From a virus (lineage: Duplodnaviria > Heunggongvirae > Uroviricota > Caudoviricetes): a stretch of DNA of 22,178 nt. The notes beneath the pieces were generated by a model, which did not search any database, had not been told where the DNA came from, and saw only the letters and a list, made by a program, of their open reading frames with translations. The stretch covers positions 1 to 22,178 of IMG/VR virus record IMGVR_UViG_2917865565_000002; one strand, given 5' to 3'. Positions 1-20,153 of the stretch are shown here, in pieces. The first letter of the stretch is position 1, and each line of letters begins with the position of its first letter. A program made the position numbers and the translations under genes.

Positions 1-2946
1 TTAGTGCTTCCCTTCTATTAAGTCTAACCTAGCTTTTATTCTTTCTATTTCTCTGCGCTGCCATGCTGCCTCGATATAGAATAAGAGATCAGGTCTGCCC
101 CCCCATCTAGATCCTGCTGGCGTTATTTCAACGCGCTCAATGATGTCTTCCATTACCATCACTAGATTATCATCCTCATCAACAATGATGCTCCCGTCAT
201 TATCAGTCAGCGGCATTTCCCTTTGGCCAGTAATGACGTCATCATATACTGCGGGATAATCGTCATAACAAAGAAAGGCATAGCGGCATGTTGTGCTTTC
301 TTCTTCCATGAGTCCGTGAGAAATAAGAACATCACGAAGTTGCTGCGCGATTACACCATGATGTATCCTCGCCCCTTCTTCCCCCTTTATAGCGACAGCG
401 TTCAGCCATTTATAAGCGATATACCTGACGTCACCCCAGGCATCCAGCAATGCTTCATCAGGAGAGACCGGCTCTGTCTTTAATGTTCCGTCACTGGTAA
501 CTACAGGGTTGGAGCCAAGATAAACTGTCGAGAACCTGTTTCCCGGACCACCAAGAGCATTTACATTATCAAGATAAGGTTTAACATCTCCGTTCTCAAA
601 AAGATGTTCGAGTGCGTTATATACCGCGCGACGTGGAGTACTGCTTCCGGAACCATGCAACGTTATCATTGCACCATCTGCTGAAGACGTTGTTTCACCG
701 CCGCTAACGATTAATCTCTGAGCGGTAACATCATCAGACGGTACTTTCTTCGCAATAATGGCGTAATTACCCTCAAGTTTGACTTCCGCGCGAACTTGTC
801 CTGATGTACCTGCATGGACAGTCAGTGACTGGACGGCAACATCATCTGTGAAATCAACGGGTACAGGGACCGTCCTCACGCCTGACGTCGACATAAAAGT
901 AGGAAGCGTTCTGTTAGGAGTGGCTCCGTAGACAAAATCCCTTGAAACAAATTCTTCCTGTTTAATTTTCACCCTGAAACAATACAAATCAGCCGGGTGA
1001 CCATCGTGAACATAAGGATATTTTCTGTTGTTATCCCCTATGCTCCATGGGTTTAGAAAGTCTTCCCCACCGAAAATGTAGTACAGCCAGTTGTCTTTGA
1101 TACAAACTGAACCAACACCAACCGCAGAGTTAACTATTCCGCCCTGATAAATCTGATCAGTAACATTAACCCACTCTACATTATCCAGACTCCACTCATT
1201 GACGTTAACTCTGGTCATAAATGTTCTTGGATAATTTCCTGCATAACGGTTATCAGGTTCTCCTCCTTCCCACTCACCAAATGCGCGCTCACTGCCAAAA
1301 ATAATCAGCTCATCGCCAACTTTGGCAAAAGGAAGGTTTGAGTGATGAACATTATTTGGGAAGCGAAGAGAATTCCATGATGCACCTAAATCAGAGCTTC
1401 TGTGTAATGAACTACCGGGTTGAGTACTTAATGTTCCCCTGGTCGTCAGATACAGAATGCCATCATAATATTTTACACATGGCTCAGATGCATTCGCCTC
1501 ATATTCTGCAGGTATGCGTCTGCGAACAAAGCTACCAGGAGAACCGAAAGCATCAGAGAAATAGAGTATCCCAAGCTCGCGTGGCCCAATATCACCATTA
1601 TGGTAGCCAACAGCAAAACTGTTATCGCTAATCGTCGCAAAACTGTGAATCTCAGTAACAGGAGTGCTTCCGTCAACAAAAGAAGGAATAGTTCCAAGAC
1701 GGGTTTTTCTCCATGGTGACGAGTGAAATGATGTACCAAAACTCCAGTATCTACCCTCGTTATTCTGATCCACATCCTGGGTATTTTGCGTCGTAACTGT
1801 AAAAGTATTTTTATCAATAACAGTAGTCACCGTCATATTCCCGGTAACACCTGTAACACCTGAGTTTGAGAAGTTGACAAAATCACCAGCAAATAATCCG
1901 TGATCAGTAATGCGAATATAAGCGACTTGCTGATTTGCTGCTTTCGTTATACCACCATAAACGCGAAGGCTGCGACTCATTGGGCGATCCCACAACTCTG
2001 CAACCTGCAGTTGATTTCCGCTCACGGTCCGCGTCTCAATTACAGCAAAAAGGCGATTTCTGACAACCCCCATACTCATGCAGTGATAGTTAACTGTGGG
2101 ATAGTTTTCATGTAAATCTGTAAGCCATTCCGGCGTTGTCCAGGTCTTCCCGTCATCTCCTGAGCGAACCCATGCAACATGGAGGTTATTTACACCATGG
2201 CGGTCTCCAGCCATAAAAGGCGCATAGATGACATTGTCATATACAAACGTCTTATCCTGCGTCCAGGCGTTGTACCACGGTGTATCTGTAATTTTAAACA
2301 ACTCTCCCTGGATAAAATCTTCAGAAGCATAAAAAAGAGGCTGACCCGGTATTCTCTCAAATAAAAAACGAGCATTTTTAAATCGACTGACATCCGGAAG
2401 AGTTGACACTTTAAAAGTAAGCCCTCGCCCATCTATCTTTTCACCACCTGTTGCAACAGAAAGTAATTCTGATAGAGCTGATGTGTCATCATGAACACCA
2501 TCACCAATAGCCCCCCAACCTCTTAGATCATAACTGTCTCTCCATCTTGCTATCTGAAGTTTTGGGTATTTATTCGCTCCATCTGGGTCTTCTAATTGCT
2601 GCCGTAGCTGATCAGGATCATACTTCAGCACATTAGGAAAATAGAACTGCTGTGCACCATACGCGTCATAAACAGCCATAGAATGGCCTTGCACAGTTAC
2701 GAATTTGGCAATCTTCCCGTTATATACTGGGAATCCTGCTGCGTTAATAACAATTGGCTGTGCTACCTGAACATGTTTACCATCTTCTCGTTCCAGATAT
2801 ACAGGGATCTGGTTTTCAGGATTTACAGGGTCAGTGTCAATTTTGCCGATATAAATTTTGCCATTGGCTACGGCTTTAAAAGAACGCGCCATAGTGAAGA
2901 GTTGCGAAGGCATACTCACTACAACATTGGCTGTAATGTCTGTCAT
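1..2946 (-). CDS. Tailspike protein: P22-type head-binding N-terminal domain fused to an endosialidase-like (endo-N-acetylneuraminidase) body with a C-terminal intramolecular-chaperone-like domain
   Basis: 981 aa. The first ~110 aa ([11 protein letters not shown]...KYDPDQ) closely resemble the P22 gp9 head-binding domain as I recall it. Two Asp-box motifs are visible ([17 protein letters not shown]). The central region resembles K1-phage endosialidase as I recall it (e.g. GWGAxGDGVxDDT, [20 protein letters not shown]). The C-terminal ~150 aa ([10 protein letters not shown]...[10 protein letters not shown]...) resembles the autocleaving chaperone domain of endosialidases and tail fibres. RBS GGAG lies upstream of the ATG at 2946. 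Confidence 0.85.
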
Positions 2947-17209: not shown

Positions 17210-17752
17210 TTAATTGGTGAGTCCGGGGATTACGGTTTGCCCGTGCTGTTCAAGGCGTTCAATTCTCGCCATTAACTGAGGATTCTTAATTTTTCCCCAG
17301 CGATTGAGCAGGCGACCTGACATGCTGGCAACATCCTTCTCTTTCATGTACTCCAGCATTACGGCATTTCTCTCTTCTTCAAATTGACGATGACCAACCT
17401 GAAGCATGGCGTACATCCAGTTAAATGCGTTGATGTAAGCAATTTTGATACGCATTGCTTCTTTTTTGGTGTAGGACATAACCAAAAGCATCAACCCATC
17501 CTTGCGGAGACGGTAGAATTTTTGCGGCTTACCATTCTGTAACTCATTGTTTTTATAGCAAAGCTCAAAGTTGAGCTTTGTATCAAACTCAGGAGGGCAA
17601 GCTTCTATGGTTCGTTCAATGTCACGAACCACGTTCTTAGGCAGCTTTCCAAATGCTTTTGCCACCATAAAAGAATCTGTAACCGGATCGTTGTTTGCCA
17701 CAAAAATCAGATCTCGGAAATCGATGCCGTTAACGATAGTTGGATAATTCAT
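17210..17752 (-). CDS. rha: Phage regulatory protein, Rha family
   Basis: 180 aa. The typical Rha N-terminal pattern is visible: AKAFGKLPKNVVRDIERTIE … NF … KFYRLRKDGLMLLVMSYTKKEAMRIKIAYINAFNWM. RBS AGGTGA upstream. Confidence 0.7.
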   Translation of the reverse strand: MNYPTIVNGIDFRDLIFVANNDPVTDSFMVAKAFGKLPKNVVRDIERTIEACPPEFDTKLNFELCYKNNELQNGKPQKFYRLRKDGLMLLVMSYTKKEAMRIKIAYINAFNWMYAMLQVGHRQFEEERNAVMLEYMKEKDVASMSGRLLNRWGKIKNPQLMARIERLEQHGQTVIPGLTN

Positions 17753-17955: not shown

Positions 17956-18393
17956 TTATTTCAGGCATTGCGTCCTGATGTACTCCTGCAGATAGTTAAC
18001 CTGCGCGGTTATCCTGTCGATTCCACTTCGGAGACGGTAATAATTGAGTTCAGCATCTGCTGTAAGTCTTGGGCTTTCTCCATCGCCCATGCCGCTGGCT
18101 CCGGTCTTTGACTTTGCACAGGAGGCGGCGACTTGCAGCCGCTTACGCCCAGCAGAAACATCATCACGGAGACTTTCGATAGTCGCGTTAGCATCAGCAA
18201 GCTCCTTTGTATATCTGGCGTCGAGTTCTGCTACATCACGTTGACGCTTCTGCATGTCAGCGATAATGGATGCGGCCTTATCGCGCTGTTCTTTGTAGGC
18301 GATGGCGTTATCACGGTAATGATTAACTGCCCATGACAGGCAGACGATGATGCAGATAACCAGAGCGGAGATAATCGCGGTTACTCTGCTCAT
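17956..18393 (-). CDS. Rz: Rz i-spanin
   Basis: 145 aa. N-terminal transmembrane segment ([18 protein letters not shown]) followed by a charged coiled-coil periplasmic domain. Directly follows endolysin with a 4-nt overlap. Similar to lambda Rz. Confidence 0.85.
18009..18200 (-). CDS. Rz1: Rz1 o-spanin, embedded in the +1 frame of Rz
   Basis: 63-aa ORF wholly inside Rz. Signal peptide with lipobox LGVSGC, then a proline-rich mature region ([16 protein letters not shown]), the standard Rz1 signature. The true start may be an internal Met. Confidence 0.7.
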
Positions 18394-18866
18394 ACCTCAA
18401 TCTCTCTGACCGTTCCGCCAGCTTCTTTGAATTTTGCAATCAGGCTGTCAGCCTTATGCTCGAACTGACCATAACCAGCGCCCGGCAGTGAAGCCCAGAT
18501 ATTGCTGCAACGGTCGATTGCCTGACGGATATCACCGCGATCAATCATCGGTAAAGCGCCACGCTCCTTAATCTGCTGCAGTGCAACAGCATCCTGGCTT
18601 TTCGGAGAGAAGTCTTTCAGGCCAAGCTGCTTGCGATAGGCATCCCACCAACGGGAAAGAAGCTGGTAACGTCCGGCGGCTGTTGATTTGAGTTTTGGGT
18701 TTAGCGTGACAAGTTTGCGAGGGTGATCAGAGTAATCAGTGAATAGCTCTCCGCCAACAATGACGTCATAACCATGATTTCTGGTTTTCTGTCGTCCGTT
18801 ATCAGTTCCCTCTGACCACGCCAGCATATCGAGGAACGCCTTACGTTGATTATTGATTTCCACCAT
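18390..18866 (-). CDS. R: Endolysin, lambda R-type lytic transglycosylase
   Basis: 158 aa. [51 protein letters not shown]… is near-identical to lambda R as I recall it, including the catalytic Glu in AWSEGTD. Confidence 0.9.
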
Positions 18867-19173
18867 CTTCTACTCCGGCTTTTTTAGCAGCGAAGCGTTT
18901 GATAAGCGAACCAATCGAGTCAGTACCGATGTAGCCGATGAACACGCTCGTTATATAAGCGAGATTGCTACTTAGTCCGGCGAAGTCGAGAAGGTCACGA
19001 ATGAACCAGGCGATAATGGCGCACATCGTTGCGTCGATTACTGTTTTTGTAAACGCACCGCCATTATATCTGCCGCGAAGGTACGCCATTGCAAACGCAA
19101 GGATTGCCCCGATGCCTTGTTCCTTTGCCGCGAGAATGGCGGCTAACAGGTCATGTTTTTCTGGCATCTTCAT
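18850..19173 (-). CDS. S: Holin, lambda S-type with dual-start motif
   Basis: 107 aa. [39 protein letters not shown]… is essentially lambda S. Met1-Lys2-Met3 gives the S107/S105 antiholin/holin dual start. Upstream leader (CCCCUUAUUGGGGGUAAGAC-AUG) resembles the lambda sdi stem-loop region. Confidence 0.9.
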
Positions 19174-19415
19174 GTCTTACCCCCAATAAGGGGATTTGCT
19201 CTATTTAATTAGGAATAAGGTCGATTACTGATAGAACAAATCCAGGCTACTGTGTTTAGTAATCAGATTTGTTCGTGACCGATATGCACGGGCAAAACGG
19301 CAGGAGGTTGTTAGCGCAGCCTCTTGCCACCCGCTTTCACGAAGGTCATGTGTAGAAGGCCGCAGCGTAACTATCACTGATGAATTCAGGATAGCCAGTG
19401 GCTACGGCTCAGTTA

Positions 19416-19491
19416 TGGTGCTGGTTAACGGACTTGAACCGCTACCCATTCGCTTACAAGGCGACTGCTCTACCATTGGAGCTAAACCAGC
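19416..19491 (-). tRNA. tRNA, anticodon UGU (Thr) by manual folding
   Basis: Minus strand GCTGGTTTAGCTCCAATGGTAGAGCAGTCGCCTTGTAAGCGAATGGGTAGCGGTTCAAGTCCGTTAACCAGCACCA. 7-bp acceptor stem, D-arm GCTC/GAGC, anticodon loop CUUGUAA, T-arm AGCGG-TTCAAGT-CCGTT, encoded CCA. One mismatch at the base of the anticodon stem. Confidence 0.65.
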
Positions 19492-19496
19492 ATATT

Positions 19497-19571
19497 TGGC
19501 GGGACAGCGTGGACTCGAACCACGATAAGAAGGTTAACAGCCTTCCGTAATAACCTTTATACGACTGACCC
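19497..19571 (-). tRNA. tRNA-like gene, anticodon GUU (Asn) by manual folding; possibly degenerate
   Basis: Minus strand GGGTCAGTCGTATAAAGGTTATTACGGAAGGCTGTTAACCTTCTTATCGTGGTTCGAGTCCACGCTGTCCCGCCA. Good T-arm (CGTGG-TTCGAGT-CCACG) and anticodon arm (GAAGG-CUGUUAA-CCUUC), encoded CCA. One U-U mismatch in the acceptor stem and a 3-bp D-stem. Sits 5 nt from the other tRNA. Confidence 0.55.
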
Positions 19572-19617
19572 AAATAAAAAAAGCCACCGTTGCAACTTAA
19601 GAGTCACTAACGGCAGC
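19572..19617 (-). terminator. Candidate tR'-like intrinsic terminator in the late leader
   Basis: Minus strand reads GCUGCCGUU-(17-nt loop)-AACGGUGGC followed by UUUUUUUAUUU. 9-bp stem with two G-U pairs. The large loop makes this tentative. Confidence 0.4.
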
Positions 19618-19627
19618 TTACCTTCTA

Positions 19628-19657
19628 ATTATGGCTAAATGGCTAATTGCATGTCAA
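19628..19657 (-). promoter_or_regulatory. Candidate sigma70 late promoter (pR'-like) overlapping the 3' end of the Q-like gene
   Basis: Minus strand has TTGACA (19657..19652), an 18-bp spacer, then CATAAT (19633..19628). The Q stop codon lies in the spacer. This position, just downstream of Q, is where lambdoid late promoters sit. Confidence 0.4.
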
Positions 19658-20153
19658 GACTTTTAACAGCAATATGCTTAACTTTCTCAACACGTTTACG
19701 CATTTTGAAAGCATTTTGCATTGGCTGGTATAAAACAAATAATGACGCTTTCAGGATATCGTCAATTTCGTTTCTACAGGTTGCCAGTGAAGGTTTTCTC
19801 CATCCCTCACCACCACGTCCACACATCTTGCGTGGCTTTGCAGTCGCGTGATAGTAGGATGCAATTGCTCGCTTAGATGAACCATGAGCGTAGTAGCTGA
19901 GGAGGATGCCAAAGGCTTTCTTGTCAATGCACATGACGGAATCGACGACCTGAGAAATCAACATTCCATCATCATCATTACACATTGGCCTTGTCATAAC
20001 TCTTCCCGGCTCTACGCTCTCCATGAACTTCGCTATTACGCTGCTCATGCGCTTTTCCAGACGACCTGAATAAACCCATGCGCCCCACAGTTCAAGCCAG
20101 CCATTCAGCCACTCGTGCTGTTCTTTGGTGAGGTTTAGTTCTCTTATGCCCAT
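19635..20153 (-). CDS. Putative late-gene antiterminator Q (non-lambda family)
   Basis: 172 aa ORF between ninI and the lysis cassette, which is the position of Q in lambdoid phages. Not similar to lambda Q by my recollection; the size fits the phage 21/82-type Q proteins. Several Cys/His residues present. Assigned by synteny. Confidence 0.6.

Follow-up and report, generated by a model that had tools for sequence, protein, structure and literature searches.

Two questions are raised by a short interval between a late antiterminator gene and a lysis cassette, namely how the two tRNA genes in it are expressed and why a temperate phage keeps them. The interval was analysed within a window of 22,178 nt, which is the whole stretch of DNA under study, and all of the named elements were located on its minus strand (Table 1). 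The locus is best read as the phage-21-type late-gene switch of a temperate phage related to P22 (CUS-3/Sf6-like), whose late leader also contains a tRNA cassette; the probability of this reading was put at roughly 0.88. Sequence and homology show the identity of each element, the constraint on the cloverleaves and the modular borders.

Table 1. Positions of the elements of the late-gene switch, tRNA cassette and lysis region in the window.
Feature	Position	Strand	Basis
Q gene, 172 aa, phage-21-type late antiterminator, Sf6/ST64T/L subtype	19635..20153	-	ORF, Pfam, PDB
pR' -35 TTGACA, within last Q codons	19652..19657	-	promoter scan, 11/12 match
Probable Q-binding element (QBE), tandem 8-bp repeats AATTAGCC/ATTTAGCC in promoter spacer	19633..19648	-	sequence, alignment
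Q stop codon TAG, inside pR' spacer	19635..19637	-	ORF/sequence
pR' -10 CATAAT	19628..19633	-	promoter scan; aligns with phage-21-lineage -10 region
Predicted late start, +1 G	19621	-	7 nt past -10; QBE C:G registration
Putative -10-like sigma-dependent pause element TAAGCT, +2..+7	19615..19620	-	alignment
tR' intrinsic terminator, bulged 17-bp hairpin (19619-19581), U7AUUU tail to 19572	19572..19619	-	folding, homology
tRNA-Asn (GUU), CCA encoded, G73 discriminator, U4·U69 and U13·U22 mismatches	19497..19571	-	ARAGORN, Rfam, covariation
tRNA-Thr (UGU), CCA encoded, A73, G1-C72, C2-G71	19416..19491	-	ARAGORN, Rfam, covariation
Lambda-homologous untranslated lysis leader, stem-loop just 5' of S starts	19174..19414	-	blastn
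Holin/antiholin S, lambda type, dual MKM start	18850..19173	-	Pfam Phage_holin_3_1 105 bits; Sf6 genes 60/61, lambda S
Endolysin R, lambda type	18390..18866	-	ORF; collinear with Sf6 gene 62, lambda R
Spanin Rz	17956..18393	-	Pfam Phage_lysis 121.6 bits; Sf6 genes 63/64
Rz1, embedded in Rz	~18009-18194	-	ORF with lipobox

Nearest Relatives of the Locus

A 521-bp segment was 97.7–98.5% identical to Sf6 (97.7%), HF4s, vB_EcoP-720R6 and BTP1, and the identity to Sf6 was ~97.3% across 2.2 kb. In the GenBank record of Sf6 (AF547987), Q, pR', qut, tR', tRNA-Asn, tRNA-Thr and lambda-like S/R/Rz are given in the identical order, and curated notes of similarity to phage 21 are attached to Q, pR', qut, tR' and both tRNAs. 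Sf6 and the window share a 99% identical Q, both TTAGCC repeats and the lambda-like S/R/Rz genes; the differences are point differences only, including one U fewer in the U-tract of Sf6 and one D-loop base of tRNA-Asn (C20 to U) that is private to the window. The late switch with two tRNAs is an already known and already annotated module of E. coli prophages, and at least 80% of a 245-bp block was carried by 265 of 5426 complete E. coli genomes. The remaining window was nearer to vB_EcoP-720R6 and CUS-3, and an endosialidase tailspike was present.

Q Antiterminator and Late Promoter

Q matched the Pfam family PF06530 (Phage_antitermQ) with 90.1 bits, the cutoff being 26, and it aligned with PDB 6JNX over residues 1–162 (E 3.4e-91) and with PDB 6P18 (E 1.1e-90). 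It was 99% identical to gene 59 of Sf6 and 85% identical to the Q of Nil2 and SfI, which has 162 aa. The Q of lambda comes from a different sequence family with no relation to this one. SfI and Nil2 stood in for the phage 21 lineage, and the published QBE oligonucleotide GCAAATGAGCAACA occurs in their sequence. Q has 172 residues in the window and 162 in phage 21 (Q21, structures 6JNX and 6P18–6P1C), and the two proteins diverge from about residue 95 onward. Only two differences, C75 for Y and R95 for H, were found within residues 1–102, whereas the C-terminal DNA-binding third has diverged, and two residues reported as base-contacting are changed (H95 to R and R128 to N). For the late region of phage 21, the primary report is that of Guo, Kainz and Roberts from 1991.

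A promoter overlapping the Q stop codon had been claimed as TTGACA-N18-CATAAT, and it was present at 19657..19628 on the minus strand with a match of 11/12. It was the sole match of at least 11/12 on both strands of the window, where 0.27 were expected and at least one occurred in 22% of resamples. pR' is annotated in Sf6 and HK75. The late regions of six phages (the window, Sf6, BTP1, HK75, Nil2 and SfI) were aligned, and the -35 hexamer was unchanged in the five others. As the earlier note had suggested, the module could be aligned with its counterpart in the 21 lineage, and register was kept at the terminator, the -10-like element and the QBE-like repeats.

The spacer of the promoter contains two repeats with the core TTAGCC (19646–19641 and 19638–19633, minus strand), and this repeat was unique within the window. 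The position between the -35 and -10 elements and the 8-bp period match those of the phage 21 QBE, which is TGAGCA twice (PMC6606751). The two TTAGCC repeats are probably the Q-binding element of this Q, judging from their sequence and placement. The equivalent repeats AATTATCC/ATTTAGCC were proposed as the QBE of phage L (PMC8022706), and the upstream core is TTATCC in L, BTP1 and HK75 instead of the TTAGCC of the window. Phage 21 and the window share the -35 element but differ in the repeats (TGAGCA and TTAGCC) and in the -10 region (AACACT and CATAAT). The window cassette would thereby represent a specificity variant of Q21 that was previously described for phage L. The divergence of this Q and its QBE from phage 21 was already noted by the authors of the phage L paper; hence, the co-variation of Q and QBE was rejected as a new finding (PMC8022706).

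The predicted start was reached by two routes, the distance from the -10 element and the registration of the C:G pairs of the QBE at -21 and -13 as in phage 21 (PMC6606751). The TAAGCT element that would follow directly was unchanged in the six phages, which span both Q21 subtypes, and it may act as a pause element by analogy with the mechanism of Q21 (10.1101/651190, PMC6606751). A literature search on BTP1/D23580 yielded no usable transcript mapping for this type of promoter.

Terminator and Leader

A hairpin with a U-tract had been expected downstream of the promoter, and folding recovered it at -20.2 kcal/mol (z = -5.4), with none of 200 shuffled sequences being as stable. A simple consensus scan for terminators failed to report tR' because its stem carries a bulge. 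The terminator is annotated in Sf6, HK75, Nil2 and phage L, and the U tail differed by one base in Sf6 and HK75 in the alignment. The predicted pR' leader comprises about 50 nt and ends at tR', whereas the pR' leader of lambda comprises ~194 nt.

The Two tRNA Genes

Both tRNA genes were called by ARAGORN, as tRNA-Asn(gtt) and tRNA-Thr(tgt), and they scored 55.5 and 61.5 bits, respectively, against the Rfam RF00005 gathering score of 29. The anticodons UGU and GUU and the 5-nt gap proposed beforehand were found, but the proposed order of Thr and then Asn was reversed, with tRNA-Asn coming first in the transcript. Asparaginyl-tRNA synthetase recognizes G73 and the GUU anticodon, and threonyl-tRNA synthetase recognizes G1-C72, C2-G71, G35 and U36. 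All of these bases are present in the respective genes, together with A73 in tRNA-Thr and an encoded CCA in both. tRNA-Asn is annotated in Sf6, BTP1, SfI and E. coli genomes.

The mismatch suspected in the acceptor stem of tRNA-Asn was real (U4·U69), and a second mismatch, U13·U22, was located in the D stem. The pair U4·U69 occurred in all 13 distinct tRNA-Asn variants, while three other stem pairs showed compensated changes. Three compensated pairs were counted for each tRNA, those of tRNA-Thr being in the acceptor stem; none of 500 shuffles matched the observed value, and slid controls gave 0–1 pairs. The copy in a Klebsiella lambdoid phage carried three compensated pairs in tRNA-Asn and two in tRNA-Thr and retained U4·U69, and the sequence L022 contributed one further compensated pair in tRNA-Thr. 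The covariation support was modest because only these two diverged sequences supplied changes. The suggestion that tRNA-Asn is a pseudo-tRNA was rejected, since its mismatch is conserved and the Klebsiella-phage copy has compensated stem changes.

Lysis Cassette and Module Borders

The earlier note had contrasted a Q that is not lambda-type with a lambda-type S-R-Rz cassette, and both parts were borne out by the structural matches of Q (E ~1e-91) and by a lysis region that was 92.9% identical to lambda from 19414 to 18134 in blastn. A dual-start class I holin, an endolysin and a spanin with an embedded lipoprotein gene were found, as in a lambda-type lysis cassette; no match was obtained for R in the Pfam search. 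Lambda homology ended at the start of Q (20151) and restarted at 19414, 2 nt beyond the CCA of tRNA-Thr, which supports the idea of a recombination joint at this junction. Two other candidates in the lysis leader were set aside. A 50-aa ORF at 19225-19377(-) was taken as non-coding and is unannotated in lambda and Sf6, and a snoU85 match at 19227-19273(+) was attributed to chance (E 0.16, 15 bits against a threshold of 41).

In the compared sequences, the two tRNA genes form a sharply bordered mosaic cassette that is not always present. The scan of related loci covered loci at no less than 97% identity; hence, it provided presence and absence statistics and added little covariation. Of the 80 loci that share this Q subtype, 30 had no tRNA called by ARAGORN, which makes the cassette dispensable. 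The commonest tRNA-Asn allele was shared by 38 loci and the commonest tRNA-Thr allele by 36, with differing Q and lysis modules, and the tRNA-Thr of the window recurred unchanged in 36 other loci. Some prophage copies, several of them singletons, had stem-breaking mutations in the tRNAs.

Different combinations of the same parts were found in other phages. The tRNA-Asn/Thr pair likewise follows tR' in SfI of the 21 lineage. L/ST64T and BTP1 resemble the window in the Q subtype, the QBE-type repeats, tR' and the tRNA-Asn right behind it, but their lysis genes are non-lambda, and in L/ST64T the second tRNA has degenerated; it is annotated as tRNA-Leu(UAA) and was negative in ARAGORN. Lambda follows the same logic, in which Q is followed by a promoter that contains the QBE, then by a sigma-dependent pause, a terminator and S-R-Rz, but it carries no tRNAs. 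In HK446, a lambda-type Q/pR'/tR' is joined to the very same tRNA pair directly at the U-tract. In the Stx phages 933W, Sakai and Nil2, the interval from tR' to the first late genes (cargo or lysis) contains tRNAs as well, ileZ-argN-argO, which differ in species from the window pair. Nil2 has a 21-type Q and the same tR', and its tRNA-Asn is cut by an IS-like insertion so that the first 24 nt remain, while in HK75 the final 26 nt of tRNA-Thr are left. Asn(GUU) and Thr(UGU) also occur together in P1 (2 nt apart and in the same order), in N4 and in the Klebsiella lambdoid phage.

Proposed Mechanism and Codon Supply

Transcription would begin at ~19621 from the sigma-70 promoter over the end of Q, and RNA polymerase would pause at the -10-like TAAGCT. 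Without Q, the transcript would end at the hairpin and U-tract of tR', ~45–50 nt further on. Once Q has accumulated, two Q protomers on the two TTAGCC repeats would be loaded onto the paused polymerase. The nozzle that Q21 builds on the RNA exit channel blocks formation of the terminator hairpin (10.1101/651190, PMC6606751), and a similar nozzle may let polymerase pass tR' here. Readthrough would then cover tRNA-Asn(GUU) from +51, tRNA-Thr(UGU), the lambda-like leader, S-R-Rz/Rz1 and the virion genes. The tRNAs, whose CCA ends are encoded, would presumably be released by RNase P and by trimming at the 3' side, and may add decoding of ACA and AAC/AAU during late protein synthesis. The start site, the efficiency of tR' and the Q-dependent readthrough are assigned to this locus by analogy, and we infer that expression of the tRNAs depends on Q, that they are processed and that they are of benefit.

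The codon usage of the late genes, a comparison suggested earlier for both tRNAs, spoke for one of them and not for the other. In the window, the 17 late genes use ACA at 17.1 per 1000 codons and for 29% of their Thr codons, against 7.1 per 1000 in the Shigella host according to the SfI paper. Asn codon use in the late genes was only slightly high, and the SfI paper found no Asn codon bias. In the coat gene, 17 of the 20 Asn codons are AAC. Codon supply accounts for Thr(UGU) but hardly for Asn.

Alternative Explanations

The presence of tRNA-Asn, which codon bias leaves unexplained, might be accounted for if the Asn(GUU)-Thr(UGU) cassette were an anti-defence module against AriB, the nuclease of the PARIS defence, and late translation continued after the defence fires. 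This explanation is compatible with late-switch expression and differs on why the tRNAs are kept. By sequence, the window tRNAs would be two of the three main AriB targets, and both lack the motif base U39. The change of U39 to A alone abolishes cleavage of tRNA-Lys by AriB, and T5 variants of tRNA-Lys, tRNA-Thr and tRNA-Asn rescue infection (PMC12409363). Positions 36–41 read UAAGCG in the window tRNA-Thr and UAACCU in tRNA-Asn, whereas the host tRNAs have UAAUCA and UAAUCC; both genes are thus substituted at or near the 40|41 cleavage site (U39 and position 41). The tRNA-Thr of T5 also has G39, and the recurrence of the pair in P1, N4 and the Klebsiella phage fits the same explanation, as does the fact that the cassette carries exactly Thr(UGU) and Asn(GUU) among the AriB targets.

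The primary AriB target, tRNA-Lys(UUU), is absent from the cassette, however, although the tRNA-Lys of T5 was needed for rescue (PMC12409363). The window further differs from T5 in that its tRNAs are only ~65% identical to the T5 genes and its phage is temperate. The phage tRNA-Thr genes (window, P1, N4 and Klebsiella) are related, with 63–70 of 76 positions identical, so G39 was perhaps inherited once and not repeatedly selected, and the tRNA-Asn of P1 retains the full UAAUCA motif. Moreover, the window tRNAs are only 62–72% identical to the host genes, and a non-host stem pair is expected by chance; the substitutions at the cleavage site are weak evidence because these stems differ from the host anyway. 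In the literature searched, no statement was found on PARIS evasion by an Asn/Thr cassette in temperate phages, and the PARIS papers covered by it did not mention temperate phages. A role against PARIS was considered doubtful, though it fared best among the alternatives.

A second explanation concerns the leader. In addition to its role in antitermination, the ~45–50-nt transcript from pR' to tR', constitutive in lysogens, might serve as a regulatory sRNA by analogy with StxS, a terminated pR' leader that acts as an Hfq-dependent sRNA (PMC7547250). The stretch from TAAGCT (+2) to the end of the hairpin was identical in all six aligned phages, though their promoters were only ~81% identical, and the mean identity of the leader over 78 IMG/VR loci was 99.2%. 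The pause element and the terminator suffice to explain this conservation, however, and the RNA is almost wholly one hairpin with no obvious free seed and without a match to an Rfam family. Such a function was judged improbable.

Expression of the tRNAs from their own promoter, independent of Q and also in lysogens as for ileZ-argN-argO of the Stx phages, was judged still less probable. For the Sakai Stx phage, the tRNAs seem to be transcribed from a start that lies upstream of them, between tR' and stx2 (PMC7547250), and the phage L authors left undecided the choice between excision of the tRNAs from the late mRNA and a separate tRNA promoter (PMC8022706). In the window, tRNA-Asn starts 1 nt past the end of the tR' tail, 4 nt past the 7-U run and 50 nt past the predicted pR' start, and a scan of this strand between Q and S found no second promoter-like site. 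The HK446 cassette is likewise fused straight to the U-tract of a lambda-type tR'. Since tRNA-Asn abuts the tR' tail and no other promoter-like site was found, the antiterminated late transcript would be, by geometry, the sole obvious origin of the tRNAs.

It is equally hard to credit that the cassette is a functionless relic, with a pseudo-tRNA-Asn and a pair that persists only as a scar of recombination or as a linker joining mosaic modules: the two mismatches of tRNA-Asn, the loci without the cassette, the fragments in HK75 and Nil2, the degenerate second tRNA of L/ST64T and the broken stems of several prophage singletons would suit it, but both tRNAs are far over the Rfam threshold and keep CCA and the class discriminator and anticodon bases, compensated pairs occur in the Klebsiella-phage copy and L022, and the commonest alleles are identical across different modules.

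Biological Significance

The gain in annotation from the late-switch reading is small. The module was curated in Sf6 (2004) and treated for SfI, ST64T, PS3, phage 21 and L, and PGAP calls it routinely in hundreds of E. coli genomes. The locus is of value as a natural specificity variant of Q21, in which Q residues (H95R and R128N) and both QBE half-sites appear to have changed together. The pause element and the terminator are constant despite this change, and the two systems would hence form a ready pair for testing how Q reads its site. If the cassette does act against PARIS, the puzzling tRNA-Asn would be explained, as would the movement of the cassette as a unit among unrelated Q and lysis modules. 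Furthermore, the cassette comprises exactly two tRNA species cut by PARIS, which makes the question of why small temperate phages carry one or two tRNAs directly testable.

Results

The structure at this locus is a textbook late-gene module, which is already annotated and already known. Over the 521 bp around it, Escherichia phages HF4s and vB_EcoP-720R6, Shigella phage Sf6 and many Salmonella P22-like phages (e.g., BTP1) matched the window at 97.7–98.5% identity. In the Sf6 annotation (AF547987), gene 59 ("similar to phage 21 Q") is followed by a promoter labelled "nearly identical to phage 21 late promoter", by a qut site and the tR′ terminator, then by tRNA-Asn and tRNA-Thr (both "similar to phage 21"), and last by S, R, Rz and Rz1 of lambda-like type. 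The SfI genome paper (PMC3636060) reports the same Asn(GUU) and Thr(UGU) genes in tandem, or just one of the two, 3′ of Q in Sf6, ST64T, PS3 and phage 21. Among 5426 complete E. coli genomes, 831 matched part of a 245-bp block and 265 matched at least 80% of it; the PGAP labels in matching genomes were tRNA-Thr, tRNA-Asn and antiterminator Q family protein. The observation of the earlier note was confirmed and its interpretation was essentially right, the only corrections being the transcript order of the tRNAs (Asn, then Thr) and the position of the acceptor mismatch (U4·U69).

Features of the late module in the window
Feature	Position	Strand	Basis or remark
Gene Q, 172 aa	20153–19635	−	ORF
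pR′ −35, TTGACA	19657–19652	−	promoter scan
Q stop codon, TAG	19637–19635	−	inside pR′ spacer
pR′ −10, CATAAT	19633–19628	−	promoter scan; 18-nt spacer; 11/12 match overall
Predicted late start, +1	19621	−	repeats registered as in phage 21
tR′, bulged 17-bp hairpin	19619–19581	−	RNA fold from predicted start; U7AUUU next
tRNA-Asn(GUU)	19571–19497	−	ARAGORN; Rfam 55.5 bits
tRNA-Thr(UGU)	19491–19416	−	ARAGORN; Rfam 61.5 bits
Leader, 241 nt	3′ of tRNA-Thr, before S	−	lambda-homologous, untranslated
Holin S	19173–18850	−	downstream of leader; then endolysin R, Rz/Rz1, virion genes

The sequence directly 3′ of Q reads gtcTTGACAtgcAATTAGCCATTTAGCCATAATtagaagGTAAGCT... on the minus strand. The late promoter (pR′) claimed over the Q stop codon was recovered there, and it was the sole match of at least 11/12 on both strands of the 22-kb window. 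Such matches were expected 0.27 times and occurred at least once in 22% of resamples; hence the putative promoter is credible mainly by its position and homology, not by statistics alone. The hairpin with a U-tract was likewise found past it, with a fold of −20.2 kcal/mol (z = −5.4) that was equalled in stability by 0/200 shuffles.

As the earlier note stated, Q is not of the lambda type: it matched Pfam Phage_antitermQ and, at E ~1e-91, two solved structures of Q21 (6JNX and 6P18). The ~100 N-terminal residues were nearly identical to Q21 (two differences in residues 1–102), and the C-terminal third was diverged. The region was aligned with the true phage-21 lineage, represented by SfI and Nil2 (162-aa Q), and two subtypes of Q and its site emerged. 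In SfI and Nil2 the spacer carries TGAGCA-N2-TGAGCA, which is the Q-binding element (QBE) observed in Q21 complexes; its C:G pairs lie at −21 and −13 (PMC6606751). At the same positions, the putative QBE of the window, Sf6, BTP1 and HK75 was TTAGCC-N2-TTAGCC, the upstream repeat being TTATCC in BTP1 and HK75; registering these repeats as in phage 21 placed the start. Two of the five residues reported to read bases in Q21 (H95, R113, A124, R127 and R128; PMC6606751) were changed, to R95 and N128. The reading head of Q and its site thus appear to co-vary. This is not new, because the phage L paper (PMC8022706) states it explicitly for L/ST64T, with repeats AATTATCC/ATTTAGCC, Q divergence past residue 94 and a late start ~46 bp ahead of the first tRNA.

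The six aligned phages differed in their QBE repeats but were identical from TAAGCT (+2 to +7, a −10-like pause element) to the end of the terminator hairpin. This late leader (19572–19620, minus strand) stood beside a promoter and Q 3′ ends that were only ~81% identical. Its mean identity was 99.2% across 78 IMG/VR loci.

Both tRNAs, claimed with anticodons UGU and GUU and 5 nt apart, were called by ARAGORN and exceeded the gathering score of the Rfam tRNA model (29); no other element of the window reached any Rfam threshold. tRNA-Asn directly abuts the terminator tail (19572), 4 nt past the 7-U run. Both genes encode CCA ends, and their discriminator and anticodon bases fit their class under the E. 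coli AsnRS and ThrRS identity rules. All distinct alleles were taken from 88 related loci, the commonest being identical in 38 (tRNA-Asn) and 36 (tRNA-Thr). The copies of a lambdoid Klebsiella phage were diverged (67/75 positions identical for Asn and 70/76 for Thr), with changes on both sides of pairs 6:67, 7:66 and 28:42 in tRNA-Asn and 3:70 and 6:67 in tRNA-Thr, to which locus L022 adds 5:68. Three compensated pairs per tRNA on the cloverleaf were reached in 0/500 shuffles, and slid controls gave 0–1. This pattern lends modest support to real tRNAs, with few sequences behind it and in one direction. The mismatch noticed in the acceptor stem of tRNA-Asn was present, and none of the 13 distinct variants pairs these positions: 11, the Klebsiella copy among them, have U·U, and the other two have U·C. 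It is a conserved trait and not decay. Together with the three compensated pairs elsewhere, its retention argues against a pseudo-tRNA. Identity to E. coli was 62% (tRNA-Asn, asnT) and 72% (tRNA-Thr, thrU), so neither was captured recently from the host.

At 19552 (minus strand), D-loop position 20 of tRNA-Asn, the window has U, found in no other sampled locus, and the common allele has C, their single difference; the position appears unconstrained, because other copies carry G or A. Decay was seen in several prophage singletons with broken stems. In phage L/ST64T, the second tRNA (L007, 781–852), annotated tRNA-Leu(UAA), is a rearranged tRNA-Thr derivative that has lost 4 nt from the D arm and has a changed anticodon arm, and it received no ARAGORN call. 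In two IMG/VR loci (L019 and L028), the first tRNA past tR′ is an Asn tRNA in which U35→A makes the anticodon GAU, with two further changes. ARAGORN accordingly reports a tRNA-Ile there, and either a switch of anticodon or simple decay could lie behind it.

Lambda homology stopped at the Q start (20151). It began again at 19414, 2 nt beyond the CCA of tRNA-Thr, with 92.9% identity across S, R and into Rz. HK446 has lambda-type Q and pR′ but the same, unannotated tRNA pair, joined at the terminator U-tract (19581), and HK75 and CUS-3 have Q/pR′/tR′ of the window without tRNAs. The last 26 nt of tRNA-Thr remain in HK75 (L004, 1208–1233). In the Stx2 phage Nil2 (L003, ~1028–1051), the first 24 nt of tRNA-Asn remain, and an IS-like insertion, ileZ-argN-argO and stx2 come next. 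Both lineages therefore carried the cassette at one time. Of the 80 IMG/VR loci that carry this Q subtype, 44 had Asn and Thr and 30 had no tRNA called by ARAGORN; the other six comprised two with the GAU tRNA and tRNA-Thr, two with Asn and an unrelated tRNA-Gly, one with Asn only and one without a recognisable promoter. The tRNA-Gly(UCC) occupies the second position in place of tRNA-Thr (L041 and L043), so the slot past tR′ takes different tRNAs. The cassette occurred both with and without a lambda-type S region. The pair thus appears to be a mobile cassette with sharp borders, and the proposed recombination joint was right in substance.

The best overall match of the window was Escherichia phage vB_EcoP-720R6 (82% coverage, 96.5% identity). 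The tailspike (1–2946, minus strand) combines P22-type head-binding and endosialidase domains with a C-terminal chaperone domain; the window is therefore a CUS-3-like phage or prophage of P22 type, specific for the K1 capsule. The gene for a 180-aa protein bearing Rha (Phage_pRha) and ORF11CD3 domains (17210–17752, minus strand) lies in the late operon, with the spanin genes on one side and the small terminase gene on the other.

Discussion

Codon supply, the usual rationale for these tRNAs, fits tRNA-Thr: across the 17 late genes, ACA was used 17.1 times per 1000 codons and accounted for 29% of the codons for Thr, and SfI has 17.3 against 7.1 in its Shigella host (PMC3636060). It suits tRNA-Asn poorly, because the SfI authors found no Asn bias (PMC3636060) and strong AAC preference was confined to the coat and scaffold genes.

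The cassette might instead replace tRNAs cut by AriB, the nuclease of the PARIS defence system, a tentative reading that we consider rather unlikely. T5 tRNAs for Lys, Thr and Asn jointly neutralise PARIS, and U39→A alone abolishes tRNA-Lys cleavage (PMC12409363). The species carried are exactly Thr(UGU) and Asn(GUU), but tRNA-Lys is missing. Positions 36–41 are UAAGCG (Thr) and UAACCU (Asn) versus UAAUCA in thrU and UAAUCC in asnT, but such stems differ from those of the host anyway. G39, also present in T5 tRNA-Thr, occurred in 5/5 phage Thr(UGU) genes checked, and U39 was absent from 4/5 Asn genes; however, the Thr genes are interrelated, so G39 may reflect a single inheritance, and the P1 Asn retains the full motif. 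Both species are also found in N4, in the Klebsiella phage and in P1, where trnA-trnT keep this order with a 2-nt gap. The P1 locus is L093 1849–2002, and N4 carries Asn, Ser, Thr and Pro tRNAs (L094, 1337–1586). The tRNA-Thr of the window shared 83–88% identity with those of P1 and N4, and its tRNA-Asn was unrelated to theirs (46–48 of 75 positions). A literature search found no paper tying PARIS to these temperate phages.

The pause element and the terminator are enough to account for the conservation of the leader; a role for it as a small RNA, like StxS, is improbable.

Expression of the tRNAs is best modelled on phage 21 (10.1101/651190, PMC6606751). By that homology, pR′ would fire constitutively, sigma-70 would re-bind TAAGCT and the polymerase would pause. 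Two Q protomers on the repeats would then load onto it, forming a nozzle on the RNA exit channel, and the modified polymerase would ignore tR′; without Q, only a 45–50-nt leader would be made. For the tRNAs of phage L, its authors allow both excision from the late mRNA and transcription from a separate promoter (PMC8022706). Unrelated late-leader tRNAs of the Sakai Stx phage seem to be transcribed from a promoter of their own (PMC7547250), but such Q-independent expression is highly improbable here, because the promoter scan found no other promoter-like site ahead of tRNA-Asn, which adjoins the terminator tail at +51 from the predicted start. For the same reason, readthrough from pR′ is almost the only way in which the tRNAs could be made, and RNase P and 3′ trimming would presumably free them from the transcript. 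In a module otherwise already known, the PARIS connection is the one testable idea from this locus.
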